DNA of 62,628 bases, filler included, from Stramenopiles sp. TOSAG23-6 (Eukaryota): the NCBI GenBank assembly GCA_900128565.1. It is 10 parts of 10 records of this genome, joined end to end, with 100 filler letters (N's around TTAATTAATTAA, not from the genome) between each part and the next. Parts side by side here need not be neighbours in the genome. Positions count along the whole stretch, not along the records: positions 44,332 to 55,232 come from LT636287.1; 9 more parts are not named here. The stretch is one strand, 5' to 3'. The notes below the pieces were generated by a model. The model made no database searches. It was not told the origin of the DNA and saw only the letters and a program-made list of their open reading frames with translations. A program made the translations under genes and the position numbers. Positions 11,026 to 59,854 of this stretch are shown here, piece after piece. The first letter of the stretch is position 1. The number at the start of each line of letters is the position of its first letter.

Positions 11026-11078
11026 ATGTATTTTGGAAAAATATTTCAAAAAAAAAAACTTAAATTCGTTAGGTACAA

Positions 11079-30111: not shown

Positions 30112-30159
<48 letters not shown>

Positions 30160-30164
30160 AACAA

Positions 30165-30204
<40 letters not shown>

Positions 30205-33376: not shown

Positions 33377-33848
33377 TGTTTTGGATTTTTTCAATTCTTT
33401 CCGTTGCTCCATTACTCATGATTCCTCTCAGTGTTTGTTATACAGTTACATTAAAAAAAAAAAAAAAAACATACATACATACAAAATTCATAAAAAATTC
33501 ATACAAAATTTCATACCTAACAAAATTGTAACAATTTTTTTCATATATTTTTTCACAATACGTAAATTGTCAATTTTAAAAAAAAATCGAAAATTATACA
33601 TTTTATCCGAATTAATTGTTAGTGGATTTATTATATGGACATCTGTGCCATTAGGTATGGCCTTATATCCAGCAACTTCATTTGTTCCATCATCTGCTTT
33701 AGAGACTACATTTCATAACCCTAACCCTACACAAAACCCTAACCCTACTACACAAAACTCTATATTAGCTACAGTAGGTTCAAAATCTGTAGAATTTTCT
33801 GAAAATAAAAATATTGATGTTTTACTTCAATATAATAAAGGATTATAA
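33377..33848 (+). CDS. Sideroflexin C-terminal exons (partial)
   Basis: VPLGMALYP...LE...YNKGL terminus. Confidence 0.8.
33433..33563 (+). mobile_element. Diverged family intron, GT-GT (or GT-AC at 33431-33561)
   Basis: ctcagt|GTTTG...ATACCTAAC...CAATACGT|aaattg. Confidence 0.6.
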
Positions 33849-37104: not shown

Positions 37105-40100
37105 ATGTCTGAGCTGTTTGAGCCAACTGAGCCGCCAGATCCTCCAGATCCCCCAGTTCCCCCGGATCCACCAGTGTTATATGTAAATACTACAAAGTTT
37201 CAGATGAAGAAGAAACCCAAGACACCAAAGGAGAGGATGAGAGATAGCCGGAAGCGGGCAGCTAATTCCATAGCAAGAAAGGGGCAAAGAAGTAGGAAAA
37301 ATCCTTCACGTCCAAAGACACCAAAGACACCAGCAAAAGAACGGATGCGAAAAATGAGGTGGAGGAAAGCTGAAGCTGCAAAGAAGAAATTGGCAGCTAT
37401 AAAAGATGTGCAACCTGAAGTTGTTGTGCCAAAGGTGTTGTGTGGTTTTGAGCCAGTTGAAGATGTTGTTCAAGGTATGAGGAATATAAATATAACTGCA
37501 AAATCGCCACCTATAGTAGATGATCTAAAAGTTGTAGCAGAAGGCATTGGAAATATCAATATAACTTTGGAATCAACACCTATAGTAGAAGATGTAAAAG
37601 TTGTAGCTGATTTCAATGTTGTATATGAACAGTTGTATGAAGAGTTGTATGAGCAAGAATTATTAATGGAATTAGAGGATAAAGTGGCGACTGAGGTGGG
37701 GAAAAAACAAATGGAGCTCGAAGCACAAGCAATATTTAATTTTGATTCATTTCCCATATTTGTTGATGATGAAATACAGACAGGTATAGCTGAGCAGTGT
37801 ATGGATTATGCTGAAGAAGAATTTGAATATGAACAGTTGTATGAACAAGAATTATTAATGGATTTGGAGGGAAAATTGGCAACTGAGGTGGAAGATGTTG
37901 AGCCCCAACTTGATGTTGAGCGAAATGATGAGCTACGAAAGGCTGCTTTGAAAGATTTACGGTTTGATCGAAAGAATTCTGTTGCTGCAGAAAGGGAAAG
38001 AATTAGAAAATGTAAAGAATATCATGATAAATTATTGGAGAAATGTAGAAGTAATAGACCTGCAGGTCTTCGTGGCGCAAATGTTGAAGAGGATTTGGCT
38101 GGGGCATTTAATGATATAGGTTGGATGAATGAGAGGTGTCCCGATTGTCAAGCTTATCTTTGGGCAGATGAGAGAAACAAAGATGGAACTTTTTCTGTGT
38201 GTTGTTCTAAAGGTCAAGTAAGGATTAAGCAGCAATATCCACCACTCAAATTGGTTAAGTTATATTCTGCTGCCAATGGTGAGTTGGAGTGTTCGAAAGA
38301 AGAAAAAAAGGAAGGAAAGACATACATGCGTCATATTCGTCAGTTTAATAGTTGTCTTTCGTTTGCATCATTTTGTGTGCATGATGAATCCGTCTGCCGG
38401 TCAGCCGGTGGTGTTTCCGACTTTCGCTTGCAAGGGCAAGCGTATAAACTAATTGGTAGTTTGAATGCGCCTGAAGGAAAGAAACCAAAATTTTTACAAA
38501 TATATTTTACAACAAGTGAAGATGAGACAAAAAATTTCCTAGAGGCTGGAAATTTGGCAGACGACAAACGTCCTTTAATGATACAATTGGCTTCTATAGT
38601 CAAGGAAGAAAATGAAATATTCAAAATGTTTAAGTGGGCCAATGACACATTCCAGCAAGAATTGGTAGATGAAAAACATGATGATTGTCGTTCTGAAGAT
38701 GTGGAGGGAAAAGTTGTTGGATCCTTGGAATTAAGACTAACAGATAGTTCTCGCCCCAGTGGTGCACATGAAAGACAATACAACCTCCCTGTGGTAGAAG
38801 GTGAGGTAGCTGCAATTATTGCAGGTATTGATTCCCCATCATGTGATCAAAGGGAGATTCGCGTTCGTTCTGTTGCTTCTGATTCATGTGATAGAATCAG
38901 TAGTTGTCATGCTCTATATGATCCGCTGACATACCCGTTGTTGCTTCCGAAAGGGACATGCGGATGGCATATTGGAATGAAGAAAGAAAATTGTAAGTCT
39001 TTGACTGCACGTCATTTCGCAGCGTATATGCTGTTTCAACGTGATATTCGTCGTGATGAAAGTGGTGAAATTATTCCGCTTTTGTCGAAGAATGGAAATG
39101 GGGAAATTGTTCAAAACATCAAGCTTGATTTTATACATTTAGGGGGTAGATTATATCAACAGTGGATTGTTGATCAATGGGTGAAAATTGAGGAAGGGAG
39201 GCTGAATTATTTAAGATTTAATCAAAAACAGATAAAGGCTGAACTGTACCAAGAGTTAGAAGAGGCCATTGCTGACGGCGATGCCCACAATGCAGGACGG
39301 CGGATAGTGTTACCAGCAACTCATAAGGGTTCTCCTCGGGACATGACTCAAAGGTTTGCTGATGCAATGAGAATTGTTGGTGGAATTCATAGTCCTGATA
39401 TTTTTTTGACAATGACATGTAATCCCCTCTGGCCGGAGATCCAGAGGGAAATACGAGTTGGGAGCACACCTCCTCCAGATTTGTGTTCTCGCGTATTTGC
39501 TCTTAAATTGAAGGAATTAACGGATGATTTATATAATAATGGAATACTTGGTGAACATGTTGCGCATGTGCATGTTATAGAGTATCAAAAGCGTGGTTTA
39601 CCCCACGCTCACATTTTGTTAATTTTAAAAGATGCTGATAGGCCGAAATGTGTGGAGGATATAGACAGATTGGTATGTGCTGAGATACCAGACCCTACCA
39701 TTTCTAAAAATCATGCACGGCTCCATGCAATTGTTGTTGGGAATATGGTGCATCGGTGCAATAATCATTGTTTGGATGATTGTGGAAAATGTACGAAGGA
39801 CTTCCCAAAAGATTACTGTAAGGAGACAAAAATGAGAGATGATTCATTTCCACAGTATCGTCGTCGGAAAGAAGAAGATGGTGGAATCATTGCAATTTCA
39901 AGAGGTAGAAAAATAACAAATCAAATGATTGTTCCGTATAATCCGTTTTTGAGTTTGAAATACAACTGTCATATCAATGTGGAAGTTTGTACTTCGATTT
40001 CTTCAGTGAAATATCTATTTAAATATGTATATAAAGGGCATGATCGAATAATGTATGAAGTTCGAGCATCTACTACTGATGATGATAGTATTCGAGATGA

Positions 40101-42834
40101 GATAAAGGAATATATTGATGCACGATATGTGTCTACAAGTGAGGCAACATCTCGCATATTGTCCCATCCAATGTATGAGATGTATCCTCCAGTTGAAAGA
40201 TTGGAGGTTCATGCTCCTAATGAGCAGTTTGTGTCATATCAGGAAAATTCAGATGATGAGCAAGAGAATGCAAATGCTGCTGCAGCTTTATTTCAGGCAA
40301 AACGTACACAGTTGACAGCATTTTTTTTTCTCAACCGTGAGGAAAAGCATTTTAAGCCGCTGCTAGGGCCGCAGTTGGGGTGTGGAAACAAACATAAATG
40401 TGGTTGTGAACCGTGTTGTCGTTACAAACCAGAAATTATACATCCAGCAGGCAAATGTACAAATGATGTTGTTGTTGATGTTAATATTAAACAAATCCAC
40501 CCAGCTGCATATACTAGCAAACGAAATGGTAAAATTAAATTTACAACAAGAGGAAAAACACCACATGTGAAATGTGCAAAAGAACAGAAAAAAAAATGTC
40601 AAGGAGGTAAGTTATGTAAAAAAAATAACCCCTCAGCAAACGATCTAACATATATGGAACTGCCGCGTTATTATAAATATGATCGTAAAGAAAAAAATTG
40701 GATTCGGAGAAAGTCGCCAAAGCAGAAAAATATCTTGGGTAGAATGCGTTTAATTCAGCCAAGCGCAGGTCCTGCGTACTATGTTAGGCTCCTTCTACAT
40801 AATGTGAAGGGGCCAACAAGTTGGGTTGATCTCCGAACAGTTGATGGAACTGTTTTTGAAACTTTTCAGGCTGCCTGTGTTGCACGTGGGCTTCTTGAGG
40901 ATGACCAAGAATGGTCACGTGTTTTAGAGGAAACAGCTGCATTAAAAAGTGGTTCGCAGTTACGGGGCCTATTTGTTATAATACTTACTGCATGTTTTCC
41001 AGCAGATCCGGCTTTTTTGTGGTCTCAATTCAAAGATGACCTTTCTGAAGACTTTGCATGGAAAAGGAAATTTGATGGAAGATGGCATGGGAATGGAATG
41101 CCGCCAGTGATTGAGGAGGATTATATGCTTGCTTTGGCTGACCTAAAAAATCGATTGGCGTTGTTTCAAAAAAATAATCCAAGTGACTATGGTCTTCCAG
41201 AAATAAATGAAGAAATCCTTGCTCGCTTCAATAATCAACCAGTTAGGTCACATGTACAGGCGCGTGAGATAACTGAAGCCTTGAATTATGACCTTTTAGA
41301 GCAATCTGAGATATATAACAATCGTATGTCATGCTTTAATGAATCCCAAAAACCAGCATTTTTAGAGATTAAAAATGCAATAGATGAAGAAAATGGTGGT
41401 TGTTTTTTCCTTGATGCATTTGGTGGTTCCGGTAAAACATTTTTGACAAATGCGCTCCTTGCATATACACGAAGCTTAGGGAAAATAGCATTAGCAACAG
41501 CAACATCAGGTATTGCTGCCGTTCTTCTTGAAGGCGGACGTACAGCACACAGTACCCTGAAAATCCCTATAAATGTTAAAGAAAACAGTAGCTGCTACAT
41601 AACAAAACGACAAGGACGAGGTAAACTCTTAAAAGAAACATCAATCATAATTTGGGATGAGGCATGTATGTGTTCTGCCTTATGCCTGAATGCAGTTGAT
41701 CGTACACTTCGAGAGATCCGAGAGTGCAATGAGCCATTTGGTGGTGTAGTTTTTGTGGTATGTGGCGACTGGAGGCAAGTTCTGCCAATTATACCCAAAG
41801 GATCTCGAGCACAAATCATAGGTGCAACATTCAAAAAATCACCACTTTGGAAACATTTCAAAACATTGAAGTTAAATATTAATGAGCGTGTTGCTCGAGC
41901 AGTGAACTCAGGTGAATATTCCAAAAAAGATATGGAAGATTGGTCAAATTATTTATTATCTATTGGAGATGGTACAGAGGAAACTCATGATACAATTGAA
42001 GATGACCTCATCAAAGTACCGGATAACATTGTGCTAAAAAACGATAAAGGTGAAGTCAGTCAATCTGTGAATGATTTAATTGATTTTACATTTTCGAATA
42101 TTCCAGGTGCAGATGTAGACCCAATTGAAAAATCCAAATATTACTCAACAAAGGCAATTCTAACCCCGAAAAATGTAGATGTGGATCTCATAAATCTTGA
42201 AGTGCAGAAGAAAATTAATGGTGAAAGCCATACTTATTTATCAGCAGATTCGGTTGATAAATCATCGACTGAATCTGCTCATCATTATCCGGTAGATTTT
42301 CTTAATACACTAAATATTAGTGGTTTGCCGTCCCATGAAATCACTTTGACTGTAGGGAGTGTCTGCATGCTACTCCGAAATTTAGATCCAGATAGTGGTA
42401 TGTGCAACGGTTCTCGATTCATTGTGACACACTTAGGTACAAATTTTATTAAGGGAGTCCTTGCAAATGGTTCAAAGAAAGGAAACACAATAATAGTTCC
42501 TCGAATAACTTTAATACCAAACAATACAAGATTCCCGTTTACATTACGTAGACGTCAATTTCCCATTCGTTTAGCATTTGCTATGACAATAAATAAAAGT
42601 CAAGGTCAAACATTGGAGCGTGTAGGTATTTATTTGCCAAAAGGTGTCTTTGCCCATGGTCAAATGTATGTTGCACTATCAAGATGTGGAAAACCACCAT
42701 CTGATGGAAAAGGAGTACGACTACTGTGTGTTAATGGTTGTAATCATGGTCTTTTAAAGCCAGGACCTAACTCAAGAGTTACAAAAGAAGGTGTATATAC
42801 AAAAAATATTGTATATCAAGAAATATTGAATTAA
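37105..42834 (+). mobile_element. Helitron with intact 1909-aa RepHel ORF; termini not defined
   Basis: CxxC Zn finger; Rep motifs FLTMTCNP, EYQKRGLPHAH and YLFKY; PIF1 motifs GGSGKT, DEA, GDWRQ, TINKSQGQT and YVALSR. Confidence 0.96.
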
Positions 42835-43362: not shown

Positions 43363-43600
43363 AGAATATGTAAATCTTTCACAAAAACATATTCAAATCT
43401 CTCTTCAACAATTATTTCTCCGTAAAGAACCCGAGAACCTCCAAAAATAAAAATAAATTCAAAATCCTTCAATCTATGGCACAAACCTGTTTTTCTGAGG
43501 TGTCAAGTTTAAAAAAAAAACTTGACACCACAAACCTGTTTTTCTGAGGTATAAAAAAAAAATAATAAAAAAAAAAAAAAAAAAATTTGCAGGATCCAGG

Positions 43601-43672
43601 CACGAAATCTGAAAAAAAAATCATCACTTTTTGTTGAGCAAAAAAGTGATGATTTTTTTTTCAGATTTCGTG
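43601..43672. repeat. Perfect 32-bp inverted repeat with 8-nt loop
   Basis: CACGAAATCTGA9TCATCACT5 and its reverse complement. Confidence 0.95.
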
Positions 43673-43732
43673 TTCATCTGAGTTCGTATAAAATAATTTT
43701 TTTTAAAGACAAAATTTTTTTTTTTTTTTTTT

Positions 43733-44221
43733 ATCGGCAAAGTAATAAAACAACATTTTATATTGAATCTACCAAATATTTAACATTAAATTTATCAAAA
43801 GTTAATGTACAGATCCCAGAATTTCTTTTTTGAATAAATAAAAAAAAAATAATAAAAAAAAAAAAAAATTCGAAATTTGCCGGATCCGGGGGCTTTTTTC
43901 TCCCTGGATCCGGCAAATTTATTCGAAAATAATTTATAAAAAAAAAAAATTAAAAATAAATAAAAATTTAATAAATTAGACATTGGACAATATCACAAAT
44001 ACGTAAAAATTATTTCATTACAAAAAAAAAATTTTTAATAAAATTAATCCGAGATATACAAATTTCAGAAAGTAACGTACCGGACGAAAAAATGAGAAAA
44101 ACAGGTTCGTCCCCTCATATATCGGCAAAGTAATAAAAAAACATTTTATATTGAATCTACCAAATATTTAACATTAAATTTATCAAAAGTTAATGTACAG
44201 ATCCCAGAATTTCTTTTTTGA
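43733..44221. repeat. Two direct repeats of about 100 bp (43733, 44121) bracketing a GC-rich hairpin at 43874-43920
   Basis: ATCGGCAAAGTAAT...TTCTTTTTTGA twice; AAATTTGCCGGATCC...GGATCCGGCAAATTT. Confidence 0.9.
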
Positions 44222-44442: not shown

Positions 44443-46202
44443 ATTTTTTTTCTCTTGTTGCGGACCTGCATGACAATACTATCAAAAATATTTCATATAT
44501 TTGAAATTCGTTAGGTATACAAAATTGTCTATGAAAAAAAAAATGAAATTAGGGTTAGGGCTACAACTGTACACTACTGTATGATCTGCAATAAATGTAT
44601 TTTGGAAAAATATTTCAAAAAAAAAAAAAAAATTCGTTAGGTACAAAATTTCGTACGAAAAAAATTTCGATTTTTTTGTAAAAAAAAAAAAAAAAAATTA
44701 AAACATACATAACGTTCCTTTTGACCATGTTTTATTTGAAATAGGAAAAGATTTTTTTGTTTTTGAATTTTTTTTCAACTTTATTGTGTTTGAATTTTTT
44801 TTCAACTTTTTTGTGTTTGAAAATATGATTTCCTCTTTTTCTAGCTGAACTTCAGAATTGGTTTTAGTTTTAAGTGGATTTGCAATATGTATTGTGATTT
44901 TTTTTTTTTTGTTAAAAATAATTGTTAGGTACAACATTTCGTACGAAAAAAAAAAAATTTTTTGTTAAAAATAATCGTTAGGTACAACATTTAGAAAATG
45001 TTAGATAAAAAATTTTTAAAAAAAAAAAAAAAAAAAAAAAAAGACAACCAACACACGGTTTCATTCTTCGAAGTAATTCAGTCCTTGGCAATGCTAATTC
45101 GGGTGCATATGTCAATACACGTTCATACTTTGAACCACTCCCAGGAGAAATGCCAAGATAATTACAAGCTTCTTTATGTGTTGGTTTTGATGAGGATATC
45201 TTGGAAAATATATTTTAAAAAAAATTAAAATTTGTTAGGTACGAAATTTCGTATGAAAAAAAAAATATATTTCAAAAAAAATTAAAATTTGTTAGGTACG
45301 AAATTTCGTATGAAAAAAAAAATCATACTCAATATAAAAACATACCTGTTTTGGAAATAGAACATGGTGTAGTACTATAATACACTAATGTTGGTTCAGC
45401 ATTATTTGTCAATGCCATTACTACTTGCATTTGACCAGGTTTGTATTTTGGAAAAATATTTCAAAAAAAATCTAAAAAAAAAAAATCTAAAAAAATTCGT
45501 TAGGTACAAAATTTCGTACGAAAAAAATAAAAATAAATTCAAATTGAAAAAAAAAAGAAAAATGTACAATAAATCTACGTGCGGTGTTTGAACTTTTTCA
45601 GCTCCAATCAACACAGCCACATCTGGTGAAACGCGAACATTTGAAAATCCATTATTTCGTGCACAATTTCGAATGGTATTACGAAAACAAACTAAAAAAC
45701 GTGAAAACTCATCGACACAAAAATCTAAATGAATTGCATTTGAACCACGTTGAACGTGTGTATAATAATTCCTGAGATATGTTTTCCATGATTCAGAATT
45801 TTTACCATCTAAATGTACTTCACTTCTTGCACCAATGACACGTGTTGTTTTTTCTTTATTTCTCTCGGCAAATCGTATCAAATGATACATGAAATTACAC
45901 GGTAACGAAAACTCTTTTGTTGGTGCATACATCATCACACCAGGAATATCATGTAATGTAGTTGTACGCTCGATAGGTAAGACAGATACATTCTCATGAA
46001 TGATTGTAGTACCAAATTTTTTCCGCAACAGTGTTTTCTTTGTATATTTCTTGAGATCGTCAACAAATAAGCCACACGATTTTGTATCGATGCTCATCTT
46101 TTCATTTTTAACTGATGAATTTCTTTGGCGCTTCGGTCTAGATGATATTGATGAACAAATGGCATTTGATTGTTNCCGTTTGTGCATTNCAAGATGGTAC
46201 AC
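44443..46202 (-). CDS. Putative 2OG-Fe(II)/PhyH-like dioxygenase, multi-exon, 3' end truncated, start uncertain
   Basis: QTPHVD (HxD) and distal GTLFIADHT..HAGP after removing family introns. Confidence 0.6.
44595..44708 (-). mobile_element. Family intron GT-AT
   Basis: ttat|GTATG...AAATACAT|ttatt gives GTLFIAD. Confidence 0.85.
44887..45052 (-). mobile_element. Family intron GT-AT with duplicated core
   Basis: ccgtgt|GTTGG...CAATACAT|attgca. Confidence 0.7.
45196..45345 (-). mobile_element. Family intron GT-AT with duplicated core
   Basis: acag|GTATG...CCAAGATAT|cctca; the nearby AG is out of phase. Confidence 0.7.
45441..45567 (-). mobile_element. Family intron GT-AA
   Basis: ttatt|GTACA...AAATACAA|acctggt gives HVDLLPGQMQV. 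Confidence 0.8.
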
Positions 46203-46505: not shown

Positions 46506-49073
46506 ATGATGAGTTCAACTGCTGGATATTCACCAGAATTTCCATCTTTTATGNTTCAAACTTTATCAAAACAACCAAAACCNANAAGTGCATCANCTGC
46601 TGATTTCAAAATTGAAAAAAAGTCGACCACGCCAATATCGAAAACACTGAAAGCTCTACATTTACTCAAGGGATGGCAAAAAGATAAATCACTTTCAGAT
46701 GAAGAATATTTGGTATCAAATAGCCTTCTCCAGCATCCAACTGAAAAAACATCTGTAATGATGACGGACAAAACTGGCAAAGAAAAACTCCGAAGAAAAA
46801 TCTCCTTAGTTTCCAAAAATCAAAAAGAAAAACAAAATGACGTAACCTATACCAATGATGATGATGATGATGAGGAGGAGGAGGAGGAGGAGGAGGATAT
46901 CATCATAATACGAGATTCGGTCTCAGTCACTGAAGAAGTCAAAAACTTTATGAAACTCAAAGGACTATCTAGATTTTTACCTGTTTTTCAAAATATTGGT
47001 ATAATTGAAATGTACGATTTTGTTCATTTCATCTCTCGAGCAATGTTACAAGTTGAGGGACTTGGCAACACTGACATTGAAATTATTATGAACGCTAGAC
47101 TAACACTATTACGTAATATTAAACAACATGCTTCAAATACCGTCATTTCAATGCGTGTATGTTTTATATGAATTTCTAATTTAATTTTTTTTTCATACGA
47201 AATTTGCGTGTGCCTCGATCTCTATCAACGACAAAATCAAAAAATAGTGTTCGGATTGTTGCTGGAGATTTCGTGATTGTTGAAAATGAAAATTTAAATT
47301 TAAATTTAAATTTAAATTTTGTAAAAGGGCAAAAAGAAACAAACAACTGGTCTAGATTTTATTTAGCAAAGGTTAAAAAAGTGCACCATCCGTCATATAA
47401 TAATTGTCAATTACAATTATTTGTTTCAACAACGTTTAATCCCAAAATATTTGTAATGACAAACTGGGTTTTTTTTGAATATTTTTCGAAAATAATTTCT
47501 GTTCAAGTTGAAGTAGACAAAGATTTAGGAGGTATCTTTTATTTTTTTTTTACAAAAAAAATGAATTTTTTTTTTCAATTTCAATGTTTTTTTTCGTACG
47601 AAATTTTGTACCTAACAAATTTTTTTTTAAGAAAATTTTGAAATATTTTCCAAAATACAGGTGCACGTATCTTGGATGAAATACCATTAGATATAGGCTT
47701 AGGAAATTTCTTTTCAAATAAAGATAAAATATTTAAACGTGATAAAGATGACGTTGACACTCTATTTGAAACATCTACATCTAGAGTAAGCCTATTAGAA
47801 TTATCCACAACAATGGCATCAAATGCATATATAAAATTATCTTGTAAATTTGTATTTGGGGTATACAAAGATACNATGTACGTTTTCACAATTAATTTCA
47901 AATTTAATTTTTTTTTTAATAGAGAATTTTGTACCTAACGATTTTTTTTTATTATCCAAAAAAAAAAAAAAAATATTTTTCACAATACATGAATGATAAT
48001 AATGGTATTAGTAAGACAATTGTTAATGTTGCACTAGATGAGTCTTTCTTCAATGAAGAAGATGTAACAGGAGCTATTCATGAAATTCTATGCTTACCAG
48101 GCTTGCAATGCAAAATGACGAATATTTCTCCATATAAATTGTTCGGTACTGAAATGCATAATGACTTAAAAAGTTTAATCGGCAATTCAACTGAGAAAGA
48201 TTTCAATGATTGTTATATAATTACTTATAGTTTTCAAATTGATCCATATTATGTCGAAACTTGGAGACCAAAATCATCACTTACTGTTGAAATGTTGGTT
48301 TCTCATCTTGAGTTTCAATTAGGTGGTTTAGATGTAGGACATTCGTCACAAGAAATTATTTCTGAAACGCATGTATGTTTTATTTTTTTTTTTACATTTT
48401 TTTTTTACAAAAAAATCGAATTTATTTTTTTTTTCGTAAAAAAATTTTGTACCTAACAGATTTTTTTTTTCGTAAAATTTTTTTGAAATATTTTTTCAAA
48501 ATACATGGAAGTGCATCACATTCAAAATCACCAATGCAATTTTTTCGACTACACACAGGACTTAAGTACATCGGTTTGTTTCCAATAATAGTGACATCGA
48601 TAAAGAAACTTCCCTTTGCAGTACAAAAAGGAAATACTGTTGAAGATCTATGTAATACTCACGTGAATCAATTTGATATTGGTTCATTTGTCTATCTCAT
48701 AAACTATACAACTTCTACAAGTCTTGATGATAATGGAAAACATAATGTCCCTTTCATTGCGGGACAAGTGATGAGTGTCAATCGTGGTACGTATAAGCTA
48801 CGTATTTTTGTTTTCGATGAAAAAACTAGGACATATCATCCTATTAAGGAGACATCGCTCGCACCGGAAGAGACATTGACGAAATTTGAGGGCTTTCATA
48901 GGGACCTCAATGGTGATTGGAAATCAGAACACAAAATTTCTCCTCTTGGAGGAGCAGCTTCTATTCCGCGACGAGTGTATTCTGCTGCTATTAAAGAGGT
49001 ATTCAAAGGAATGACAAAATCAAACTTTGATAACTTAAGTATTAAAGTTGGTAAACCAGTCACAAAAAATTGA
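46506..49073 (+). CDS. SAM-domain-containing hypothetical protein; about 5 exons
   Basis: FMKLKGLSRFLPVF..IGI..M.D SAM-like motif; ORFs joined by family introns. Confidence 0.65.
47532..47660 (+). mobile_element. Family intron with canonical GT-AG ends
   Basis: ggag|GTATCTTTT...AAATACAG|gtgca. Confidence 0.88.
47878..47990 (+). mobile_element. Family intron GT-AT
   Basis: at|GTACG...CAATACAT|gaat, frame consistent. Confidence 0.85.
48373..48506 (+). mobile_element. Family intron GT-AT
   Basis: cat|GTATG...AAATACAT|gga, frame consistent. Confidence 0.85.
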
Positions 49074-49117: not shown

Positions 49118-51529
49118 CTAAAATGTATAAGGTGAAATACCTTTAGTACCCCACTCTTGAAGTAATGATACAGCTTCAATTTTTCGTAAAGGAATCTGAT
49201 CACATCCTCTGCCACCTTCTTTTTCATTTTTCCATGATAATTTTGTAAATACTAAAAGCTCTTTTTCGTTGACAGGCAAACGACAATTTATTCTTTGGAA
49301 ATCATCAATTGCCTGCCTAGATGCTGTCTTATTATCTATTTCCATCTCGGGGGAGTAATTTGCCCACTTTCTATTAAACCAAATCATTTTTTCTATTTGC
49401 GCTATCATTTTGCCTTCTTCATCATCTTCACCAATCCTTTTTGTACATGGATTTCCATCCAGTTTGAGCTCATGAAGAGTTGTATTTTTCCTTGCAAAAT
49501 CTCTTAATGTTTCCAATGTTGCAGAACTAATATAATTATTTGAAATATCAAGCATTTGCATTGGGTAAGGTTTACGTTGTTCCATCGCGGAAACTAGCTG
49601 TGAAATTCCTACATCCCCTATATTGTTATCATTCAAACTCAATAAACATATATATTGATTTGATGCAGTTGACAGCAGTGAGGCTATTTGTATAGCCCCG
49701 GAATCAGTGAGATTATTATGACCAAGGCCAAGACCAATCGTAAAAGTAGATATATTTGGAGACTTTGGTGACTCTAAAGCTACAATTAAATGGGATATTC
49801 CATCATCACCCAAATTATTACCCGAGAGATCCATACTCACAAATGTATTGTATTCATTCATTGCCATTAGGGTGGACGTTTCTATTTCTTTTTCACTTGA
49901 ATTTCCACCAAAATGTGTTGTTTTCAGTGCGCATTGTTTCAAAGCATTCAATAGAGCAACAGAACTAAACGCTGACAAGTCATTGAAACTAACGTTTAGA
50001 ATTTTCATATTTGAGGATGTCACCGATTCTAATGATTTTGCTAATGCGAATGCACCATCATCTTGAATTGCACACGCAGATATATTGATTGAAGTTAGCG
50101 ACTCGCTTATTTGCCTCTTTGCAAATGCTTCCGAGAGCGCTTTAATACCAATGGAGCCGAAGGTATTAAAAGATAAATCCAATGACTTTAGAGGCGCCGT
50201 ACCACAATAATTGGTATCCAAATCATTTTCAGTATCACGCCCCGAAAGAATTACTACAAGTGTATTAGCAATTGCACGCACTCCGGCTTCTCGAATAAAA
50301 TTCCCAGAGAGGTCTAGGTGTGATAGAATGTATTGTGAAAAAATAACTTACATTTGAAAATTGTTAGGGTATAGAATTTTCTATGAAAAACATATAAATT
50401 CGAAACTCATGATAATAACGTACATGCACATCGGTGTCATCAATACTGACGCTATCGATATAGCCCCAACATCGCCCAAACATGTATTACTCAGATTCAA
50501 TGAAGTGAGTGATACACCTGCACTAAGTACAGGAGCTAAAAATTGAACTCCCATATCTCCAATATTATTCTCAGCCAAATTAAGAATAGTGATTGGTAGA
50601 GGTTTCCTCATTCTATTTTTGAGCCAATTATGGTGCTTGTTGATGGCAAATTGATCAATTTGTGTCGGATCAAATTTACTTAACAGTGACACGGGATCTA
50701 AACTACTGGGAGCTTCTTCTAGAATCCCATGTCTATCCCCACGTAACATACAACTAAGAGTACGGAAAAACACTGGGCCCTTCAAAAAATTCAGTCCACA
50801 ATTACTAAGATCGATTGCTTTTATATTATTAGCTCCATGTGTTTTGGAAATACCAATTGAAGCTAGTATTATAGCTGCCCCAGTTGGTCCAATTGACGTA
50901 CCTGATAAATTTATAGTATAAGGTTGTTCTATAATGTCACGTGGATTTATATCTTTCTGAGAATTTAAAGTCTGCGGTATACCAATATTCCTCTTTTCAA
51001 TATTTTGCGTTACGTTTTGTAGACAAGAAGCTATTGCAAGAGCACCAAACATGCCAAGGTTTTCTCCAGAAAAATCTATTGCTCTTTCCCAACGTGTGAG
51101 TATTAACTCAGTGACAACTTTCTGAAATTCTTCCTCTTTTATATGTAACTGCTTTATATGTTCTGACAAGGTACCCGCTTGATTTAACATAATTTTTTGA
51201 GATATTTTATTGATTTTGGTGGCTATAGATGCACTCGTAGAGTTATTGAGTTCACAGACAGGTTTTATTTCGCCACAACACTTACTCTGCGCAGCTTTAC
51301 ACATCGTAACACTTGCATCGAAACACTTCACAGCAGCGTCGTACCAATTTAGCGCCAATTTTAGTTGCTGAGTATTCTGAGTTCTTTTTGTGCACGTTTC
51401 ATTATTTTGTTTTCTTTGTATTTCCTCTACGTGCACTTTTGTTTGTACGAGCTCACATTGGGATAGATCTACGCGAAGAAGCGCTGTTTGCCAATCCTTG
51501 AAATACTTGACGGTACTCTTGCTCAACAT
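49118..51529 (-). CDS. RNI-like leucine-rich repeat protein; 2 exons
   Basis: LxLxxNxIGDxG repeats. Confidence 0.88.
50328..50423 (-). mobile_element. Family intron GT-AT, 96 nt
   Basis: tgcat|GTACG...CAATACAT|tcta gives CILSHLDLSGN. Confidence 0.88.
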
Positions 51530-52094: not shown

Positions 52095-55000
52095 TCATAA
52101 AGTATCCAAAAAATGTAATTGCGATTTGTCTCTTTTAGATTCAGCAGTGGATATAATTTCCTTGCGATCTGTATTGTTTTGATTTCTTGTTTTTTCTGTA
52201 ACAACTGCAGTTTTTACGATAGAAAATACATCATGTAATAATGCAAGAATTGACATAAACAATGCAACAATCATAGAATGAAAAGCATGTCCTGTCTTTG
52301 AGTCAAAAGTAGGTGATGTTGCTCTAGATTTCAATATGTCAAAATACGTTGAAATACAAAAGAAAACGATGACTAAATTCCCGACAAATTGCAAATTTGC
52401 ATTGATTTGTATTGCTTTCAGCTTTAATTTCGAAAAAGATTTGGTAAATGATATATAGTATTTGATGATGAGTGACATAATCATCATAATCATAAAAATT
52501 TCAATTATAATTATCTCAAAACTACCTTCAAAAACACCTGGGAAAATATTATATGAAGAAAAACAAGTTGTTTCATCTTGGTAATGTAAACAAGATTTCC
52601 ACATACCAATATACATCCGCAACTCAATGCTATAGCTGATACGTTGCCAAATTCCATTTATAGGTATCTCACCTAAATCAGTTGATTGTCCTACGATGTA
52701 GCAGATAAACATAACGCCATCAAATACAATGCTTAAAGTTTCATTTCTTTCAAATTTCGGAGTAGCATACTTACATAATACAACAAGTAAAATAATTGTG
52801 ATGAACAAAAACAAATAGACTGCAATTCGACCAACTATATTGTACCGGCCGTTGTCTCCTACTAAGCTATCTTTTCTTGCTGTATCTGAGCATGTTCCAT
52901 TTGCATAGCAAAACTGACCTATCTTACAGTTTGTTTTTGTATCATTTGCATGTGATGTAATTACTTTGTTTTTGCACAAACAATTGTCTTTATCCACGTA
53001 AAACTTCCCTAATCCTGGGTCACATTGAAATCCGAATCTACATGAATATAATGTAACGCCATTCATTCGAATAGGATAAAAAGCAGTTTCTATCGGTGGA
53101 TAAATTGTACATATTTTTGTACTTGTCCCATATGCGAAATGAGCACATTTCAACTCCAAACGCCTACATGTCTCGTAACACTCAAATAGTGTTGTCTCAA
53201 CGGGTGTAGCATAAGTACTCGTCCCTGGTGGATAACTTGTATTTTCTTGTATCATTTCACAATTTACAATGGTGTTTTGAGCGCGCGAAGGAAAAATATA
53301 CGAAACTGTTAGTGAAACATTCAAAGTTTTCTGTGTATCTTGTACACTCACACCTCTATCATACAACTCACAATATTTAGTTTCAGCGATATAAACCATT
53401 GCAGCACAAAATGAGTTGTCAATACATTTTGTATAACAATCATTAACCGATTGAATACCAGAGTGTCTAATCAGTAAATTTTTATATGTAGAATGATTGT
53501 TAAATTCACAATTTTGATACTGTACGGCATCCTTATCATTAACAAATTCATCAGTCTTCAACCCTTTACAATTATCCAACGATATGGAAACATGTTCATG
53601 TTCATGTTCTTCTCCATTTTCAGCAGAACATACTCCATCATGACACCACTTTGACTTTCCACAAGGAGTATCATTCAATTGTCCTAGACCGGCAAAAGCA
53701 GACATGGAACTACACCGATTTCCAATTCCGCATTTAAAATGACATAAATCCTTGGTTATACCACAAAAATCACCCACAGAATCCAAATTATCACAAAATG
53801 ATAATTCACAGACTCCACTTACACACATACCAATTCGTGTTTGAGATCCTACGTTCTGTGTACATGGCGTTCCTAATGTAAAGTATCCATTATCAGTACA
53901 ACAATCGCTACCAAAGATAGATTCAGGAGAACAATCTTTTCCGTCTTCTAATGTACAATTGTTACAATATTTGCATGAATTAGACTTATCCATACACTCA
54001 CATTCATCACCTCCTGATATAACACCGTCACCACAAACTGGTTTGTAAAGCTCTACTTGTTTTCCAACAATACATTTTTTCAAATTTCTTTCAAGAGTTT
54101 TACATGTTTTGTGAAAAAAAAATTTAGTTAAAAAAATTGTTAGGTACAAAATTTCGTATGAAAAAAAAAAAAATTAGAAATTCATATCAAACGTACATAT
54201 ATACTTTCTATTCCCTTTATGGAATTGATACACGTGATCTATTTGGAGACGATAGCCATAATCCATTATACCACCGATGTTTCCTGCTTTTCCCAATGGC
54301 CGATCATATATTGTGAATTTNGTTTTTGTAAAATTCGTTAGGTACGAAATTTCGTACGTAAAAAAAATAGGTAAAAAATTGAAAAAAAAAACGTACCCCG
54401 TTTTTAGGATCAAATAAATGTTTACCACCAAGACCATGACCTACTTCGTGAGCAAATGTTATCCAAGACAATTCTCCTTTTGTGACATTCGTGGCACCAA
54501 CATTCAGTATTTCGCACAGGCCTCCAGTATATGCGATTTTGTAAAAATATTTCAAAAAAAAAAACTAAAATTTGTTAGGTACAAATTTTTTTACCAAAAA
54601 AAAAAAATAAATTCGATTTTTTTGTAAAAAAAAAATAAAACGCACATGCGATACCTAAAGTTCTATCTATGTTATTATTAAGTTCAAAAATATGATACAA
54701 AGCATATTCTGAAGATACTTTTGTCGCCGCATTTACAACTCTCAATTTGGAAATTTGATCACCTAATTTTTTTGAATTTGTATTGTCATGTATTTTGGAA
54801 AAATATTTGAAAATTTACCAAAAAAAAAAAATTGTTAGGTACAAAATTTTTATAAAAAAAAAAGTTCAATTTCAAATTAAATAAAAAAATAAACATAAAA
54901 CATACATATGAAACATGTACTGTTAAATAATCCACTTTTTTGATTTTAAGCACAATATCAAATTGTTGCTTATATATTTGATTTGTCTTCTCAACAATTG

Positions 55001-55232
55001 ATGTGAGAAATTCGTTTGCTTTGTTTTGATTATTACCAAATGCTTGGAATAAGTTTTTCGTAACTGTGATATGTATAAGAAGAGTCTCAGGTACTGTATT
55101 GTGAAAAAAAAAAAAAAAAAAATTGTTAGGTACAAATTTTACTATGAAAAAAAAAAACTCAAAAAAAAAAAAAAAAAAAATCATGATGAAAAAAAAATTT
55201 GTCCTGTACATGGTTTCCCCTCATCGATTTTT
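52095..55232 (-). CDS. ADAM-like (M12B reprolysin) metalloprotease with disintegrin-like, PAN/apple-like and claudin-like C-terminal regions; 5' end truncated
   Basis: AHEVGHGLGGKH, Met-turn GIMDY, CGDGVISGGDECEC, GMWKSC plus several TM helices. Confidence 0.88.
54104..55209 (-). mobile_element. Five family introns: 54104-54196, 54306-54396, 54531-54645 and 54788-54905 (GT-AT); 55094-55209 (GT-AG)
   Basis: Removal gives one frame including LGIAYTGGLC and KYICKTL. Confidence 0.85.
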
Positions 55233-55928: not shown

Positions 55929-56262
55929 TTAAATACGTTCAGAAAAATACACAACGACAACAGTGATATCTTCAATATTATGCTTCCTTAATTTTGCATT
56001 TGCTTTTGCACCTTGTACTAAAGCAGTGACGGCATATTTTGTGAAAAAAAAAAACATTACATTTTGTTAGGTACAAAATTTCGTACCAAAAAAAAATTAA
56101 AATTTTTACATTGAAATTCATGATAAAAATGTACATGCTCTGGTTTAATATAACTTCCAACTATATTGCAAACTGTTTCCATAGTCATATATTGTAAAAG
56201 AGCATGTTTTGTAAAGATATATACAAAAAAATACAATGTTTTTATTAGGTACGAAATTTTGT

Positions 56263-57020: not shown

Positions 57021-58193
57021 ATGGCATCTCGTTCCCACCAAAGTGAATTCCACGAGACGGATTTACTTGATTCTCTATTTTCGTTCGACGGAATGAACGG
57101 TGATGATATAAAATTTAACCCTCAATCTGATGTATCAGTGAATAATTTCTTTGCGTCTCTAGACTCTGACCATCTTCTCAGTAACTTTGAGACAGGCGTA
57201 AGTCATACTAGTCGACAACGGCATAACATTTCTAATGAACTTTTTAGCGGTATATGCACGGGAGTTCCTCCTATAAGTTCATTTTCTTGTGAGACCAACA
57301 TACAACCATTTTCTCGTATATCGAAACATGACGATTCGTCAACAACTTTCAAATTATCTCCGGTGGTCGCAAACGCTGCTGCTTCGTCTGAACGAAAAAT
57401 ATGTACTTCACGGTTAGGGTTAGGGTTAGCTGCTTCGTCTGAACGAAAAATGTGTACTTCACTGTTACGTCACACAAACTTACATATGAGTACTTCCCAT
57501 AATCTGAACTGTACTGATAGAAGCAGATTGCGTTCAAAATCACCGTCTAAACGTCTGTGTAAATTTAGTCCAAAGTCTCGAATACAAAAATCTCATATAA
57601 AAAGGAAGAGATCGGTATAAAGTAGATTCTATATTGCCGGGTAAATCACAGACGCGTATATATAGCAAAACATTTGGGTCTGCAACGAATCAAGCATTTA
57701 GTTTTCCATCTAAATCCACTATAGATGATTTAGCTTTCAAAACAAAGAAAAAGTCGAAAAAGAAGAAAACGAGTAAAAAAAAAACATGGAAACAACCGGA
57801 AAATGTTAATGTAAAAAGTAAATCAAAAACAAAACCATTGAAACAATCGGAAAATGTTAATGTAAAAAGTAAATCAAAAAATGAAGATTTTACAGTAAAA
57901 AGTGGGGTGTTGCATAAGACTCAAAATACATTCAAAACGATTAATGAACTCGATGAATACGATATAGTGCAAATATTTGGTCAGCCTACAACTAAAAATA
58001 TTGAAAATAATATTGAAGAATGTGCTTATACGCCATTTAGTGCACCAGAAAAAAGCATATATAGTACGCATTCGCCGCTTTCTAAAAATATCCGTAACGT
58101 AATGCCATGTTCTCCTCCAACGACTCCAAAGTTGATACCAGAAACGCATTTAAATCAATCTGTTGATAAATCCAATGATAATTTTAATAGTAA
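57021..58193 (+). CDS. Ser/Lys-rich hypothetical protein (partial); two ORFs separated by a frame break near 57620
   Basis: Consecutive long ORFs; junction unresolved. Confidence 0.45.
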
Positions 58194-58341
58194 NNNNNNN
58201 NNNNNNNNNNNNNNNNNNNNNNNNNNNNNNNNNNNNNTTAATTAATTAANNNNNNNNNNNNNNNNNNNNNNNNNNNNNNNNNNNNNNNNNNNNAAAAAAA
58301 AAATTTCCCAAAAAAAAAAATTTTTTTTTTTTTTTTTCCCG

Positions 58342-58375
<34 letters not shown>

Positions 58376-58379
58376 ATAC

Positions 58380-59475
58380 ATATTTGCTTTAAGAATAATT
58401 GAATGGGAAAAAGCATCAATGTTCTGTTTTGAACCCAATTGATCTTTTAATTTTTTTGTAATGATTAATCCAATATGTAAAATTGTAACTCTTGAAGGAT
58501 CATTCGAATAACAGTTTTGAAATGTAGTGATACTCAATTTTCTTTTTGACTGGTGATGATCTGTTTCAATGGAATGAACATTTTATATGAAAAAATATGT
58601 CACATTTTATTTTTTATACATTTTTGTTAGGTACAAAATTTCATATGAAACATTAAATTTGAAATTCATAATGAAAACGTACTTTTGTTATATGAAGTTT
58701 ATTCGACTTTTGAAGTGACCGAAAATCATATAACTGTCCTTGCCAAGTAAAAATACCATCCAATATGGCTCCTGTACTTTCGATACTTTGGTTAGGGTTA
58801 GGGTTTTCATGAATAAAATCAGGTAATAGCATTAATGTATTGTGAATTTTTTCTTTTTTTTTTGAAAAATTTGTTAGGTACAAAATTTCGTATGAAAAAA
58901 ATAAATTCGAAATTTAAAAGCAATAATAATGAAAACGTACATAAAGCTTTGTCTTTGTTGTTTTGCTTGTTCTGAATTGATTTTTTTACCGATGATATTN
59001 TTTTTGATGTTGTTGATTTTGTTGTGTAATAAGGTACATCCCAAAAAATATCATTTTTATCATTTTTATCATTTTTATCATTTTCAGTAGAATGTTTTGT
59101 AAATAAAGAATGATGGTGTGTATCTTTTTGTTTATGTAATATAAAATTGACATTTTCATCATCGAGTTCTAACTGTAAATGAAGTATTTCTGCTGCTTTA
59201 ACTTCCTTATGAGATAATCTCCGATGATGTCTTTTATTACCTTGAGTATACAATATATTATGTGGTTCATTAACTGGTGTTGTACCCAATTCATTCGATG
59301 TAAGTATTCGTAAATTAAATGTATTTTGATACGTCTGAGTATTTTCAGGTTCGGAAAAACTTTCGAGATGAATTTTTTGTAGTAGGTCTTTTTGGTCTTT
59401 TTGTACCAAAGAGTAACACTGTATGATGATTTGAATACACAACAGAATGAAAAGGAATTTCTGTGTCATTGTCAT
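58380..59475 (-). CDS. N-terminal exons of a secreted ADAM-like protein; family GT-AT introns 58835-58940 and 58580-58682
   Basis: Signal peptide and prodomain-like region; ILHIGLIITK...IILKAN resembles 55093-54960. Confidence 0.6.
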
Positions 59476-59772
59476 AGTACAAAATCTTTTCGCGAGTGGT
59501 TTTTTGTTTATTTCGTTTGTTTCGTTTCAATGGGAAGATTTTTACTACTACTACAAGGTTCCGTTGAGAATTTGGAAAGTTTATTGGACTTACAAAAAAA
59601 AAATCTTTTTTTTTTTGTTTGAAACTCCGAAAATATCGATATGTAACGTAAATATTCGTCGTTTCGGCGATTNNNNNNNNNNNNNNNNNNNNNNNNNNNN
59701 NNNNNNNNNNNNNNNNTTAATTAATTAANNNNNNNNNNNNNNNNNNNNNNNNNNNNNNNNNNNNNNNNNNNN

Positions 59773-59820
59773 AAAAAAAAAATTTCCCAAAAAAAAAAAT
59801 TTTTTTTTTTTTTTTTCCCG

Positions 59821-59854
<34 letters not shown>

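Follow-up and report, generated by a model that had tools for sequence, protein, structure and literature searches.

Genes in the stretch of Stramenopiles sp. TOSAG23-6 DNA analysed here (the window, 62,628 nucleotides in ten joined parts, assembly GCA_900128565.1) are interrupted almost solely by a single intron family, which is old and very abundant and whose copies leave the mRNA as GT...AT introns, the register being set by RNA for one of them. The evidence supports these introns being copies of one family, alike through common descent rather than through shared splice signals alone. The explanation to which we lean, tentatively, is an old, high-copy introner-like element that spread as DNA with a 2-bp target duplication, usually of AT, and is spliced GT-AT; the AT duplication itself is plausible.

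The family was defined by 35 unique complete copies, which were curated; read as GT...AT, each of the 35 links one open frame to another and is frame-consistent. The set excludes the copies that a duplicate contig repeats (60161, 60419) and those broken off where a contig ends. The introns are of roughly 90-130 nt, the family as a whole spanning 84-166 nt. In the following list a caret marks a splice border and a slash separates the exon-end from the intron-end dinucleotide.

200-283, minus strand: divergent family intron, 84 nt, AT/AT
427-523, minus strand: family intron, 97 nt, GT^GTATCT..ATACAT, mismatch GT/AT
579-736, minus strand: family intron, 158 nt, internal tandem duplication, AT/AT
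6797-6887, plus strand: family intron, 91 nt, AT^GAATGT..ATACAT, without GT in register, AT...AC two bases upstream
7321-7431, plus strand: family intron, 111 nt, AT/AT
7603-7709, plus strand: family intron, 107 nt, AT/AT
18126-18215, minus strand: family intron, 90 nt, TA^GTAGAT..ATACAG, GT-AG variant
25697-25790, minus strand: family intron, 94 nt, AT/AT
26187-26282, minus strand: family intron, 96 nt, GT^TTATGT..ATACAT, without GT in register, GT...AC two bases upstream, same protein either way
30922-31019, plus strand: family intron, 98 nt, AT/AT, in an AFG2-like AAA gene
31449-31539, plus strand: family intron, 91 nt, AT/AT, junction giving VQWD^DVGGL
31724-31813, plus strand: family intron, 90 nt, TT/AT, mismatch synonymous
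31936-32030, plus strand: family intron, 95 nt, TT/AT, protein (FLDEL) fitting the GT-AT register
32147-32242, plus strand: family intron, 96 nt, AT/AT
33433-33563, plus strand: family intron, 131 nt, GT^GTTTGT..ATACGT^AAA, GT/GT match, GT...AC alternative two bases upstream; exon junction presumably a no-gap fit to human sideroflexin
34905-35026, plus strand: divergent family intron, 122 nt, AG^GTACGT..ATTCAT, mismatch
44595-44708, minus strand: family intron, 114 nt, AT/AT
44887-45052, minus strand: family intron, 166 nt, degenerate 5' end with donor set by frame only, internal duplication, GT/AT
45196-45345, minus strand: family intron, 150 nt, internal tandem duplication, AG/AT
45441-45567, minus strand: family intron, 127 nt, TT^GTACAT..ATACAA, ends complementary, no repeat
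47157-47209, plus strand: doubtful shortened copy, 53 nt, 5' half only, GT^GTATGT..TTGCGT^GTG, 7-nt repeat TGCGTGT across the borders
47532-47660, plus strand: the focal family intron, 129 nt, GGAG^GTATCT..ATACAG^GTGC, canonical GT-AG variant and sole AG/AG match, phase 1, frame open for 117 codons on one side and 91 on the other
47878-47990, plus strand: family intron, 113 nt, AT/AT
48373-48506, plus strand: family intron, 134 nt, AT/AT
50328-50423, minus strand: family intron, 96 nt, AT/AT
54104-54196, minus strand: family intron, 93 nt, AT^GTACGT..AAACAT^GTA, spliced out in the RNA contigs that also lack 54306-54396
54306-54396, minus strand: family intron, 91 nt, GG^GTACGT..ATATAT^GAT, mismatch copy with GT...AT borders from RNA
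54531-54645, minus strand: family intron, 115 nt, exon and intron both closing with the 7-bp direct repeat ATCGCAT, 3' end off the ATACAT consensus
54788-54905, minus strand: family intron, 118 nt, AT/AT
55094-55209, minus strand: family intron, 116 nt, AT^GTACAG..ATACAG, mismatch AT/AG
56034-56134, minus strand: family intron, 101 nt, AT/AT
58580-58682, minus strand: family intron, 103 nt, AA/AT, identical copy on the duplicate contig at 60059-60161
58835-58940, minus strand: family intron, 106 nt, AT/AT, identical copy on the duplicate contig at 60314-60419
62205-62301, minus strand: family intron, 97 nt, CT/AT, mismatch synonymous
62509-62600, minus strand: family intron, 92 nt, AT/AT

Within the window the core word, allowing at most 2 mismatches, turns up 70 times where 18.5 would be expected, and the family profile gives 46 nhmmer matches at E<0.001. 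Six of the 18 internal contig ends fall inside family copies, and a seawater DNA run yielded 6336 contigs on the stretch, chiefly at its repeat parts. The host genes are unrelated (kinase, WD40, AFG2-like ATPase, MFS, metalloprotease, LRR), and one, the RPS5 gene, holds a non-family intron, GTAAGT...CACAG. Metagenomes scanned for the core word AAATTTYGTACCTAAC gave at least 117 stretches, and none of the 117 listed holds the family by nhmmer, all being chance matches; viral contigs searched with a 20-nt core word gave 0 stretches, and Rfam and tRNA scans of the window gave no match.

The copies share sequence beyond their splice signals. An extra TCGA motif lies between donor and core, outside the signal blocks, in 14 of 33 copies (0.65 expected), and there are two subfamilies in which a 5' variant (T or C at +4) is coupled with a 3' variant (Fisher P=0.012). 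Both features argue for common descent, and they bear out the original prediction that these introns are copies of one family. The copies have diverged, with a median pairwise identity of 0.66 and none of 435 pairs above 0.9, and three of them contain internal tandem duplications. Partial copies occur past the stop codons at 9536 and 14982, and a further fragment lies within an exon:

10630-10683, plus strand: partial family core, profile positions 24-77 (E=2.7e-8), antisense inside a minus-strand coding exon (ORF 10541-11059)

This antisense fragment and the partial copies past stops are points in favour of mobility at the DNA level.

Three blocks of the family are best conserved. The first is a donor of yeast-like type, GTAYGTTTT; the second is a branch-like box that hardly varies, GTACCTAAC, found in its exact form in 26 of 35 copies and placed 31-59 nt (median 38) upstream of the intron's 3' terminus; the third is a 3' box that closes with ...AATAC-AT. 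The donor hexamer is GTATGT in 12 copies, GTACGT in 9 and GTATC[CT] in 2 (n=35). Two RNA contigs (X5 record 13 and X9 record 28) join 54304 to 54396, with a skip of 91 and an ambiguity of 1, which excludes the register two bases upstream, so that the intron at 54306-54396 is spliced GT..AT and not AT...AC. The RNA junction 54100 to 54194, belonging to 54104-54196, skips 93 with an ambiguity of 5 that spans both the GT-AT and the AT-AC registers. Removal in RNA was thus seen for 2 of the 35 copies, among the joints listed and in two metatranscriptome runs of one study, the evidence for the other 33 being frame consistency; the joined form of the two copies was absent from the DNA run. RNA contig X7 record 15 enters the shortened copy at 47157-47209 by 11 nt and then diverges from the window sequence. 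At 31936 the GT-AT register gives FLDEL, which aligns with F[ILF]DEI of solved AFG2/VCP ATPases, and the GT...AT borders as originally drawn therefore held in both places where they could be tested. RNAalifold on 30 copies returned 0 consensus pairs, and fold z-scores of 6 copies (-1.15 to +0.44) were no better than those of shuffled sequence.

Exons end in AT at 20 of 35 occupied sites against a background of 10.9% (P=3e-11), and AT^G is found at 9 of 35 against 2.3%, a strong preference for AT^ and AT^G that agrees with the proto-splice site proposed at the outset; about half of the downstream exons (17/35) begin with G, also as proposed. For a palindromic CATG target, C at -3 (9/20) and G at +1 (9/20) are each enriched, but CAT^G occurs jointly at 2 of 35 sites, so that no clear palindromic target emerges. 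Of the complementary ends claimed earlier, ATGTAT...ATACAT, the 3' member stands, since the intron ends in ATACAT in 21 of 35 copies, but the inverted ends reach 6 nt only with the exon AT included; the element itself has GTAT/ATAC, 4 nt. Beyond these 4 nt a T-run pairs with an A-run with a bulge, and in the GTAC subfamily position 4 is unpaired. Longer autonomous elements with the same ends, for which a search had been suggested, were looked for in the window, and none was found there. The window does contain an intact Helitron ORF (Helitron_like_N and PIF1) at 37105-42831, around which no family-like ends were found.

Exon-end and intron-end dinucleotides are identical in 22 of 35 copies (19 AT/AT, 2 GT/GT and 1 AG/AG), so that the matching first reported persists, while its counts (23 of 36, with 20 AT/AT) come down on the curated unique copies. 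The GT/GT matches at 33433 and 47157, the AG/AG match at 47532 and the 7-bp ATCGCAT repeat off the consensus at 54531-54645 are all present; a repeat as long as 7 bp is the longest suffix match in 3% of shuffles. When intron ends were shuffled among exon ends, the mean was 17.1 matches (P=0.004 for the observed 22), and 3 non-AT matches are seen where chance would give about 0.5 (P=0.011, n=34). This excess rests on the three non-AT matches and the one 7-bp repeat. Covariation beyond a general AT preference, for which a check had been suggested and which we ran on the window copies, is thus visible as an excess but fades when the doubtful copies are removed, to P=0.02 without the 53-nt copy at 47157 and to P=0.10 when the canonical AG^GT..AG copy is dropped as well. 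Locus-specific matching amounts to 28 versus 26.1 at -1 (1.07-fold, P=0.11) and 26 versus 23.0 at -2 (1.13-fold, P=0.025), with none at -3 to -7 or at +1 to +6. From the permutation and per-position tests we infer that the matching is real but mostly an AT consensus across introns. G at intron position -2 goes with G at exon position -2 in 2 of 2 window copies, and in 3 of 4 (P=0.011) once the sample is enlarged by read-through introns from other genes, whose bases were deduced from residues; the counter-case is read-through intron P0123 (ENA contig), with exon end AT and G at intron -2. Among the non-AT exon ends, 12 of 15 differ from their own intron end, which counts against duplication. 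Mismatches do fall at third codon positions, as had been pointed out for 31724 and 62301 and as is also the case at 26282, but 3 of about 10 single-base mismatches is the one-third that chance would give. Because AT (and GU in RNA) is self-complementary, direct and inverted repeats are indistinguishable in 21 of the 22 matches.

Under the explanation to which we lean, the family would have multiplied at the DNA level, in the manner of a MITE-like introner whose short ends are GTAT..ATAC, and each insertion would have duplicated 2 bp of target, in most cases AT. The original message would be restored by splicing that runs from the element's GT through the second copy of the target, as in the Micromonas introner model. 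Mismatched copies would be old insertions in which the exon or intron end has since changed, and selection may keep or restore the terminal AT. The originally envisaged GTAT...ATAC element with a target duplication as acceptor is in this way upheld in its single family, its GT...AT borders at the two testable copies and its AT^ sites, while the identity of the terminal AT as a target copy is ambiguous. At 31936 the exon end codes for the conserved hydrophobic residue that follows DE of Walker B, so that the target there was not AT, and a TT duplication would need a later change to AT. The 7-bp repeat at 54531-54645 speaks against a fixed 2-bp duplication, and with all copies diverged no recent insertion offers a clean case. 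Further points against are the mere 4 nt of inverted ends once the AT is set aside, the lack of an autonomous partner in the window and the sense orientation, inside coding sequence, of all 35 complete copies. The methods section of PMC9860276, in the portion available, treats patterns found only across introns as ambiguous between duplication and site preference without duplication, and by that standard the target-site duplication is ambiguous. A bolder extension, which we consider doubtful, is that a transposon-derived family sits in most genes of an abundant uncultured marine protist, with routine use of a 3' AT; the AT^GT...AC^AT layout arising from a 2-bp duplication would then offer two interchangeable in-frame registers, loss of GT (6797, 26282) would be tolerated, and the spliceosome, major or transformed minor, would have co-evolved.

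It is quite possible that no duplication took place, and that a GT...AT element brings its own AT while the exon AT (AT^G) reflects an insertion or splicing preference, a reading that includes reverse splicing into AT^G sites followed by reverse transcription and recombination. In its favour, the consensus AT/AT accounts for 19 of the 22 matches, two AT preferences by themselves predict 17.1 matches of any kind, and an ordinary AT intron end stands beside 10 of 15 non-AT exon ends, one of them at a conserved protein position; all 35 complete copies are in sense orientation within coding sequence, and the splice signals are the best conserved blocks. The available parts of PMC9860276 hold that such patterns cannot part duplication from site preference, and describe fungal introners without duplications or inverted ends, which we count on the same side. 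The permutation results (P=0.004 for dinucleotides, P=0.011 for G/G at -2) and a 7-bp direct repeat off the family 3' consensus weigh against it, and reverse splicing in particular would not be expected to leave an antisense core fragment in an exon. Canonical Helitrons have 5'-TC and 3'-CTRR ends and a 3' hairpin, and insert between A and T without duplication. A Helitron-like insertion between the A and T of a host AT would make the element TGTAT...ATACA, each apparent AT being half host and half element; we judge this quite unlikely. Read directly from the sequence, excision of TGTAT..ATACA from DNA has the same product as GT-AT splicing, an intact Helitron ORF does lie in the window, and the accessible text of PMC12130899 reports Helitron-derived introners, but the family lacks 5'-TC and 3'-CTRR ends and a stable hairpin, so that only the AT site fits. 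The absence of family-like ends around the ORF also counts against it, and such insertion predicts neither the G/G matches nor the 7-bp repeat.

The layout AT^GT...AC^AT also contains a second in-frame register, AT...AC, which could explain the two copies without an in-register GT. That the family consists of AT...AC introns (^ATGTAT...ATAC^AT), of U12 or U2 type, with the copied AT a mere ambiguity of border placement, seems to us quite unlikely, even though the two registers give identical mRNA in the 19 AT/AT copies and an A as first base and a C as last base of an intron are a known compatible pair. The copies at 6797 and 26282 have AT..AC or GT..AC two bases upstream, and two copies begin GTATCT, like U12-type donors in the portion available of the Physarum study cited below. 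For the two testable copies, 54306-54396 and 31936, this register is refuted: RNA places the border of the former at GT..AT, the upstream register giving a different mRNA, and at 31936 it would put H in place of the I of solved homologues. Moreover, GT is found at +1/+2 in 33 of 35 copies, against AT or GT upstream in just 25 of 35, a GTATC[CT] donor occurs in 2 of 35, and the distance between branch-like box and 3' end is 31-59 nt. As for the U12 type itself, its donor [AG]TATCCTT (RTATCYTT in Physarum) is approached by GTATC[CT] in 2 of 35 copies, and in place of a TTCCTTRAC branch box near the 3' splice site the family has GTACCTAAC, at a median of 38 nt. Long, strict splice signals are described for some intron-poor eukaryotes, and ordinary non-mobile introns might resemble one another through such signals, as donor, branch-like box and 3' end being the three best conserved blocks would suggest. 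We hold this to be very unlikely in view of the TCGA motif outside those blocks (14/33 versus 0.65 expected), the subfamilies with coupled 5' and 3' variants, the partial and antisense copies outside introns and the internal tandem duplications in three copies, and the GTAAGT...CACAG intron of RPS5 shows that introns with different signals are tolerated.

Bursts of intron gain are explained, in the leading view, by transposon-derived introns, and to our knowledge nearly all described families of this kind end in AG. The best reading of the present family is as a further variant of them, set apart by GT...AT splicing. If this is true, a GT...AT family filling the genes of an organism would reveal how far an invading element can bend the spliceosome, and would provide a natural system for the study of 3' site choice. 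The public gene models for this organism run through family introns, or leave out genuine exons in order to arrive at an AG, as they do in the window genes P0121 and P0128; a profile of the read-through intron peptide, run against 1.84 billion representatives, found only 10 proteins, all of them already among the public gene models. Since public models read through or bypass these introns, gene counts, apparent pseudogenes and missing functions in such uncultured protists may partly be annotation artefacts. A full-text search of the literature found no description of this GT-AT family, and the main text, in the parts available, of PMC5778133 and PMC8163842 on uncultured stramenopile genomes makes no mention of non-canonical introns.

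The comparisons that follow draw on the available parts of the papers cited. Border repeats, complementary ends and a suspected MITE origin are shared with the nonconventional introns of euglenids and hemistasiid diplonemids (PMC12621601, PMC6221363), but these introns lack GT and have stable pairing of their ends, whereas our family has GT and no consensus structure. Assignment to this euglenozoan class was considered and set aside, with GT in 33 of 35 copies, 0 pairs by RNAalifold and folds like those of shuffled sequence. The tunicate Fritillaria borealis has mostly non-canonical introns (AG-AC, AG-AT), thought to be MITE-derived (Henriet et al. 2019, via PMC11282704). It resembles our family in the use of AT as the 3' dinucleotide, and an exonic repeat contributed to the formation of its 3' splice site; it differs in having highly diverse introns with no 5' GT, while the family is homogeneous, with GT in 33 of 35 copies and yeast-like donor and branch boxes.

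Physarum polycephalum has expanded U12-type introns, for which an origin from a TA-duplicating transposon is proposed (bioRxiv 10.1101/2020.10.12.336362), and the likeness extends to massive intron gain, inverted ends with a 2-bp repeat and GT-AT borders among the non-canonical ones. The Physarum donor GTATCTTT is common to 2 of 35 family copies; unlike Physarum, with its RTATCYTT donor and TTTGA 9-12 nt from the 3' end, the family has GTAYGTTTT and GTACCTAAC 31-59 nt upstream. Algal introners, including IE1 of Micromonas pusilla, carry their donor and co-opt the acceptor from a target-site duplication (PMC11282704, PMC9860276); the putative duplication of our family, being 2 bp long and almost always the same dinucleotide, is inseparable from site preference. 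As with these algal introners, a short non-coding high-copy element makes up introns of unrelated genes in a marine protist host, with its own 5' splice site, short inverted ends, a short border repeat and a message restored on removal. What distinguishes the family from them is a 3' end in AT rather than AG, and the age of its copies (median identity 0.66).

The genes in the window are interrupted by an abundant family of related short introns, which are removed with GT-AT borders and sit preferentially at AT^ sites (^ marking the splice border). A family profile made from 10 clear copies has 46 hits in the window with E<0.001, and the 11-nt word TTGTACCTAAC, with at most two mismatches, occurs 70 times there against 18.5 expected. 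The consensus reads NN^GTAYGTTTT, a T-rich stretch with AATTTCGAATTT, then TTTCRTACGAAATTTTGTACCTAAC, another T-rich stretch, and GAAATATTTTTYCAMAATAC-AT^. The host genes are unrelated (kinase, WD40 protein, MFS transporter, metalloprotease, LRR protein and others), and an AFG2-like AAA ATPase gene alone holds five copies. The window itself consists of small contigs chained by nine N44-TTAATTAATTAA-N44 linkers, not of one chromosome stretch, with a GC content of 24-39%; its DNA is also present in seawater metagenomes and metatranscriptomes, and scans of the window for tRNA genes and Rfam families found none. Six of the 18 internal contig ends lie inside family copies, and 6336 contigs of a seawater DNA run fall on one 8.6-kb stretch, chiefly on its repeat parts; the family must therefore be very abundant.

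After exclusion of copies cut off at contig ends and of those repeated at 60059-60161 and 60314-60419 on a duplicate contig, our curated set comprises 35 complete, unique copies, 53-166 nt long; in all 35, removal in the GT...AT register joins two open frames. The neighbouring contigs 58294-59672 and 59773-61151 are apparently one sequence deposited two times, as the 200-nt surroundings of both family introns are identical, and the ORFs too.

The sequence fits two drawings of the borders equally well, AT^GTAT...ATACAT^ and ^ATGTAT...ATAC^AT, the latter being an AT-AC intron, and because copies with AT at both exon end and intron end fit both drawings, the register is decidable only where the two ends differ. 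One such copy, 54306-54396 on the minus strand (...AACGGG^GTACG...ATATAT^GATCGG), is spliced in two RNA contigs (X5 record 13 and X9 record 28), which come from two poly(A) metatranscriptome runs of a single study and join 54304 to 54396, skipping 91 bases with a one-base ambiguity; this joint matches GT...AT precisely and rules out the alternative register, shifted upstream by two bases. The copy 54104-54196 is likewise removed in these two contigs, and the joined forms of both copies are absent from the DNA run compared alongside. At copy 31936, the GT-AT register yields FLDEL, aligned to FIDEI, FFDEI or FLDEI in all six compared stretches of solved AFG2 and VCP-like ATPases, and the alternative register would place H at that conserved position. 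GT occupies +1/+2 in 33 of the 35 copies, and the introns end in AT (29), AG (3), GT (2) or AA (1). From the RNA joints, the FLDEL fit and the prevalence of GT, we take the family to consist of GT-AT introns. The two copies that miss GT in this register, 6797 (GA..AT) and 26282 (TT..AT), have AT..AC or GT..AC available two bases upstream; at 26282 the choice of register does not alter the protein.

The sole non-family intron seen in the window, GTAAGT...CACAG in the ribosomal protein S5 gene (~17275-17543, minus strand), has no similarity to the family; ordinary GT-AG splicing thus coexists with it, and there are two intron classes. The public proteins P0121 and P0128 are identical to the window genes 25579-27396 and 28918-32618, and their gene models translate through family introns (e.g. 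...LLMYVFITNFEFTFFSYEILYLMNF...) or skip genuine exon sequence to reach an AG; the annotation behind them evidently did not permit GT-AT introns. Two more family-type donors (GTACGTTTTC) occur at 51746 and 57, both on the minus strand: one lies upstream of an LRR gene start and has a possible CACAG acceptor, and the other runs off the window start.

Common descent of the copies is robust. A TCGA-containing motif lies between donor and core in 14 of 33 copies (0.65 expected), a T/C variant at +4 is coupled with an A/C variant at -8, counted from the 3' end (13, 4, 4, 10; P=0.012), and within 579-736, 44887-45052 and 45196-45345 (all minus strand) a segment of ~55-65 nt containing the branch-like box is duplicated in tandem. 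This box is found in 33/35 copies, 31-59 nt from the 3' end, as exact GTACCTAAC in 26. Partial copies occur beyond stop codons, and at 10630-10683 a core fragment lies antisense within a coding exon. Pairwise identity among copies has a median of 0.66 and a maximum of 0.84; the family, or at least its present copies, is old. RNAalifold found no consensus pairing across 30 copies, and six copies folded no better than their shuffles (z -1.15 to +0.44). In the family consensus (e.g. 25697-25790, minus strand), two conserved CpG palindromes, TTCGAA and CGTACG, adjoin GTAC within the T-rich introns, and TTTCGTACGAAA is a perfect 12-nt palindrome.

Other repeats in the window include telomere-like units, several of which sit within open reading frames, reading NPNP, while one takes the place of the 5' end in the family copy 44485-44551:

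Telomere-like units in the window
26000-26011: (TTAGGG)2 / (CCCTAA)2 unit
44549-44560: (TTAGGG)2 / (CCCTAA)2 unit
57414-57425: (TTAGGG)2 / (CCCTAA)2 unit
58792-58803 (duplicate 60271-60282): (TTAGGG)2 / (CCCTAA)2 unit
near 31060 and 33718-33745: other rotations of the unit

The exon ends in AT at 20 of 35 insertion sites, a dinucleotide whose background frequency in the flanking exons is 10.9% (P=3e-11), and AT^G is found at 9/35 against a background of 2.3%; C is enriched at -3, as is G at +1, CAT^G occurring jointly just twice. The original prediction held that the intron end tends to copy the exon end, which would fit a target duplication supplying the acceptor or reverse splicing into AT^G sites. 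Its 23 matches in 36 copies become 22 in 35 in our set (19 AT/AT, two GT/GT, one AG/AG). The GT/GT pairs at 33433 and 47157, the AG/AG pair at the focal copy 47532-47660 and the 7-bp repeat at 54531-54645 are all as described, 17 of 35 downstream exons begin with G (about half, as had been claimed), and the complementarity of intron ends is true of the consensus. Given AT at 20 exon ends and 29 intron ends, independence predicts 17.1 matches (P=0.004, intron ends shuffled, n=35). The excess consists of three non-AT matches, with ~0.5 expected (P=0.011, n=34), and of the long repeat, whose 7-base suffix match is equalled by the longest suffix in 3% of shuffles. Copy 47157 is truncated (53 nt), an RNA contig diverging from the window sequence inside it, and the focal copy is a canonical AG^GT..AG intron; the excess has P=0.02 without the former and weakens to P=0.10 without both.

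Locus-specific matches number 28 at -1, where 26.1 are expected (P=0.11), and 26 at -2, where 23.0 are expected (P=0.025), with nothing at ten other tested positions, and 12 of the 15 non-AT exon ends differ from their own intron end. Outside the window, we inspected by eye 24 read-through proteins among the same organism's public gene models; in seven read-through introns the -2 base is determined for exon and intron alike, as A/A in five, G/G in one (P0126) and A/G in one (P0123, from an ENA contig). Window and read-through introns together pair G at intron -2 with G at exon -2 in three of four cases (P=0.011). As the methods of PMC9860276 put it, flanks shared across a whole family make a duplication indistinguishable from a duplication-free site unless one or more positions agree within loci and not between them; by that standard the family is ambiguous, leaning weakly to duplication. 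Since AT is self-complementary, as is GU in RNA, matches of the AT/AT and GT/GT kind fit an inverted as well as a direct repeat; the 7-bp repeat can be read only as direct, and the TT...AA ends of 45441-45567 only as inverted.

Our tentative preference is for a MITE-like element, its short ends being GTAT..ATAC, that would spread at the DNA level. Each insertion would duplicate a 2-bp target, usually AT, and the message would be restored when splicing runs from the GT of the element through the second target copy, as in the introner model outlined for Micromonas and other algae in PMC11282704 and PMC9860276. The main rival, which we hold to be somewhat less likely, is that the same element carries its own AT and simply prefers AT^ sites, spread by reverse splicing included: this accounts for the 10 cases, one at a conserved protein position, in which a non-AT exon end adjoins an ordinary AT intron end, but leaves the G/G matches, the 7-bp repeat and the antisense fragment unaccounted for. 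Helitron-like insertion between A and T, with no duplication, is a lesser rival; an apparently intact Helitron lies in the window (37105-42831, plus strand, a 1909-aa ORF that runs without interruption and encodes Helitron_like_N and PIF1 helicase domains), yet no family-like ends were found in its surroundings. Downstream of this ORF lie long hairpin-forming inverted repeats (~43590-43680, ~43870-43920). AT-AC borders, another lesser rival, are refuted wherever a test was possible, by RNA at 54306-54396 and by protein at 31936, and ordinary introns with strict splice signals are unlikely because the copies share non-signal sequence. The predicted duplication, as a transposon footprint, is no more than plausible, leaving the original observation partly confirmed; the GT-AT introner-like family is more solid and more interesting than the footprint reading.

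The family belongs to the introner kind, and differs from described introners in its AT acceptor, in a putative duplication of 2 bp that is nearly invariant, in the age of its copies and in supplying nearly all introns seen in the window. Our literature searches, including word look-ups in the main text of two papers on uncultured stramenopile genomes, found no description of such introns. Euglenozoan nonconventional introns depend on end pairing, which is absent here, and Fritillaria introns, as summarised in PMC11282704, have the AT acceptor in common with the family while lacking GT. The U12-type introns of Physarum carry signals other than those of this family, but resemble it in GT-AT as a minority border and in a proposed 2-bp duplication.
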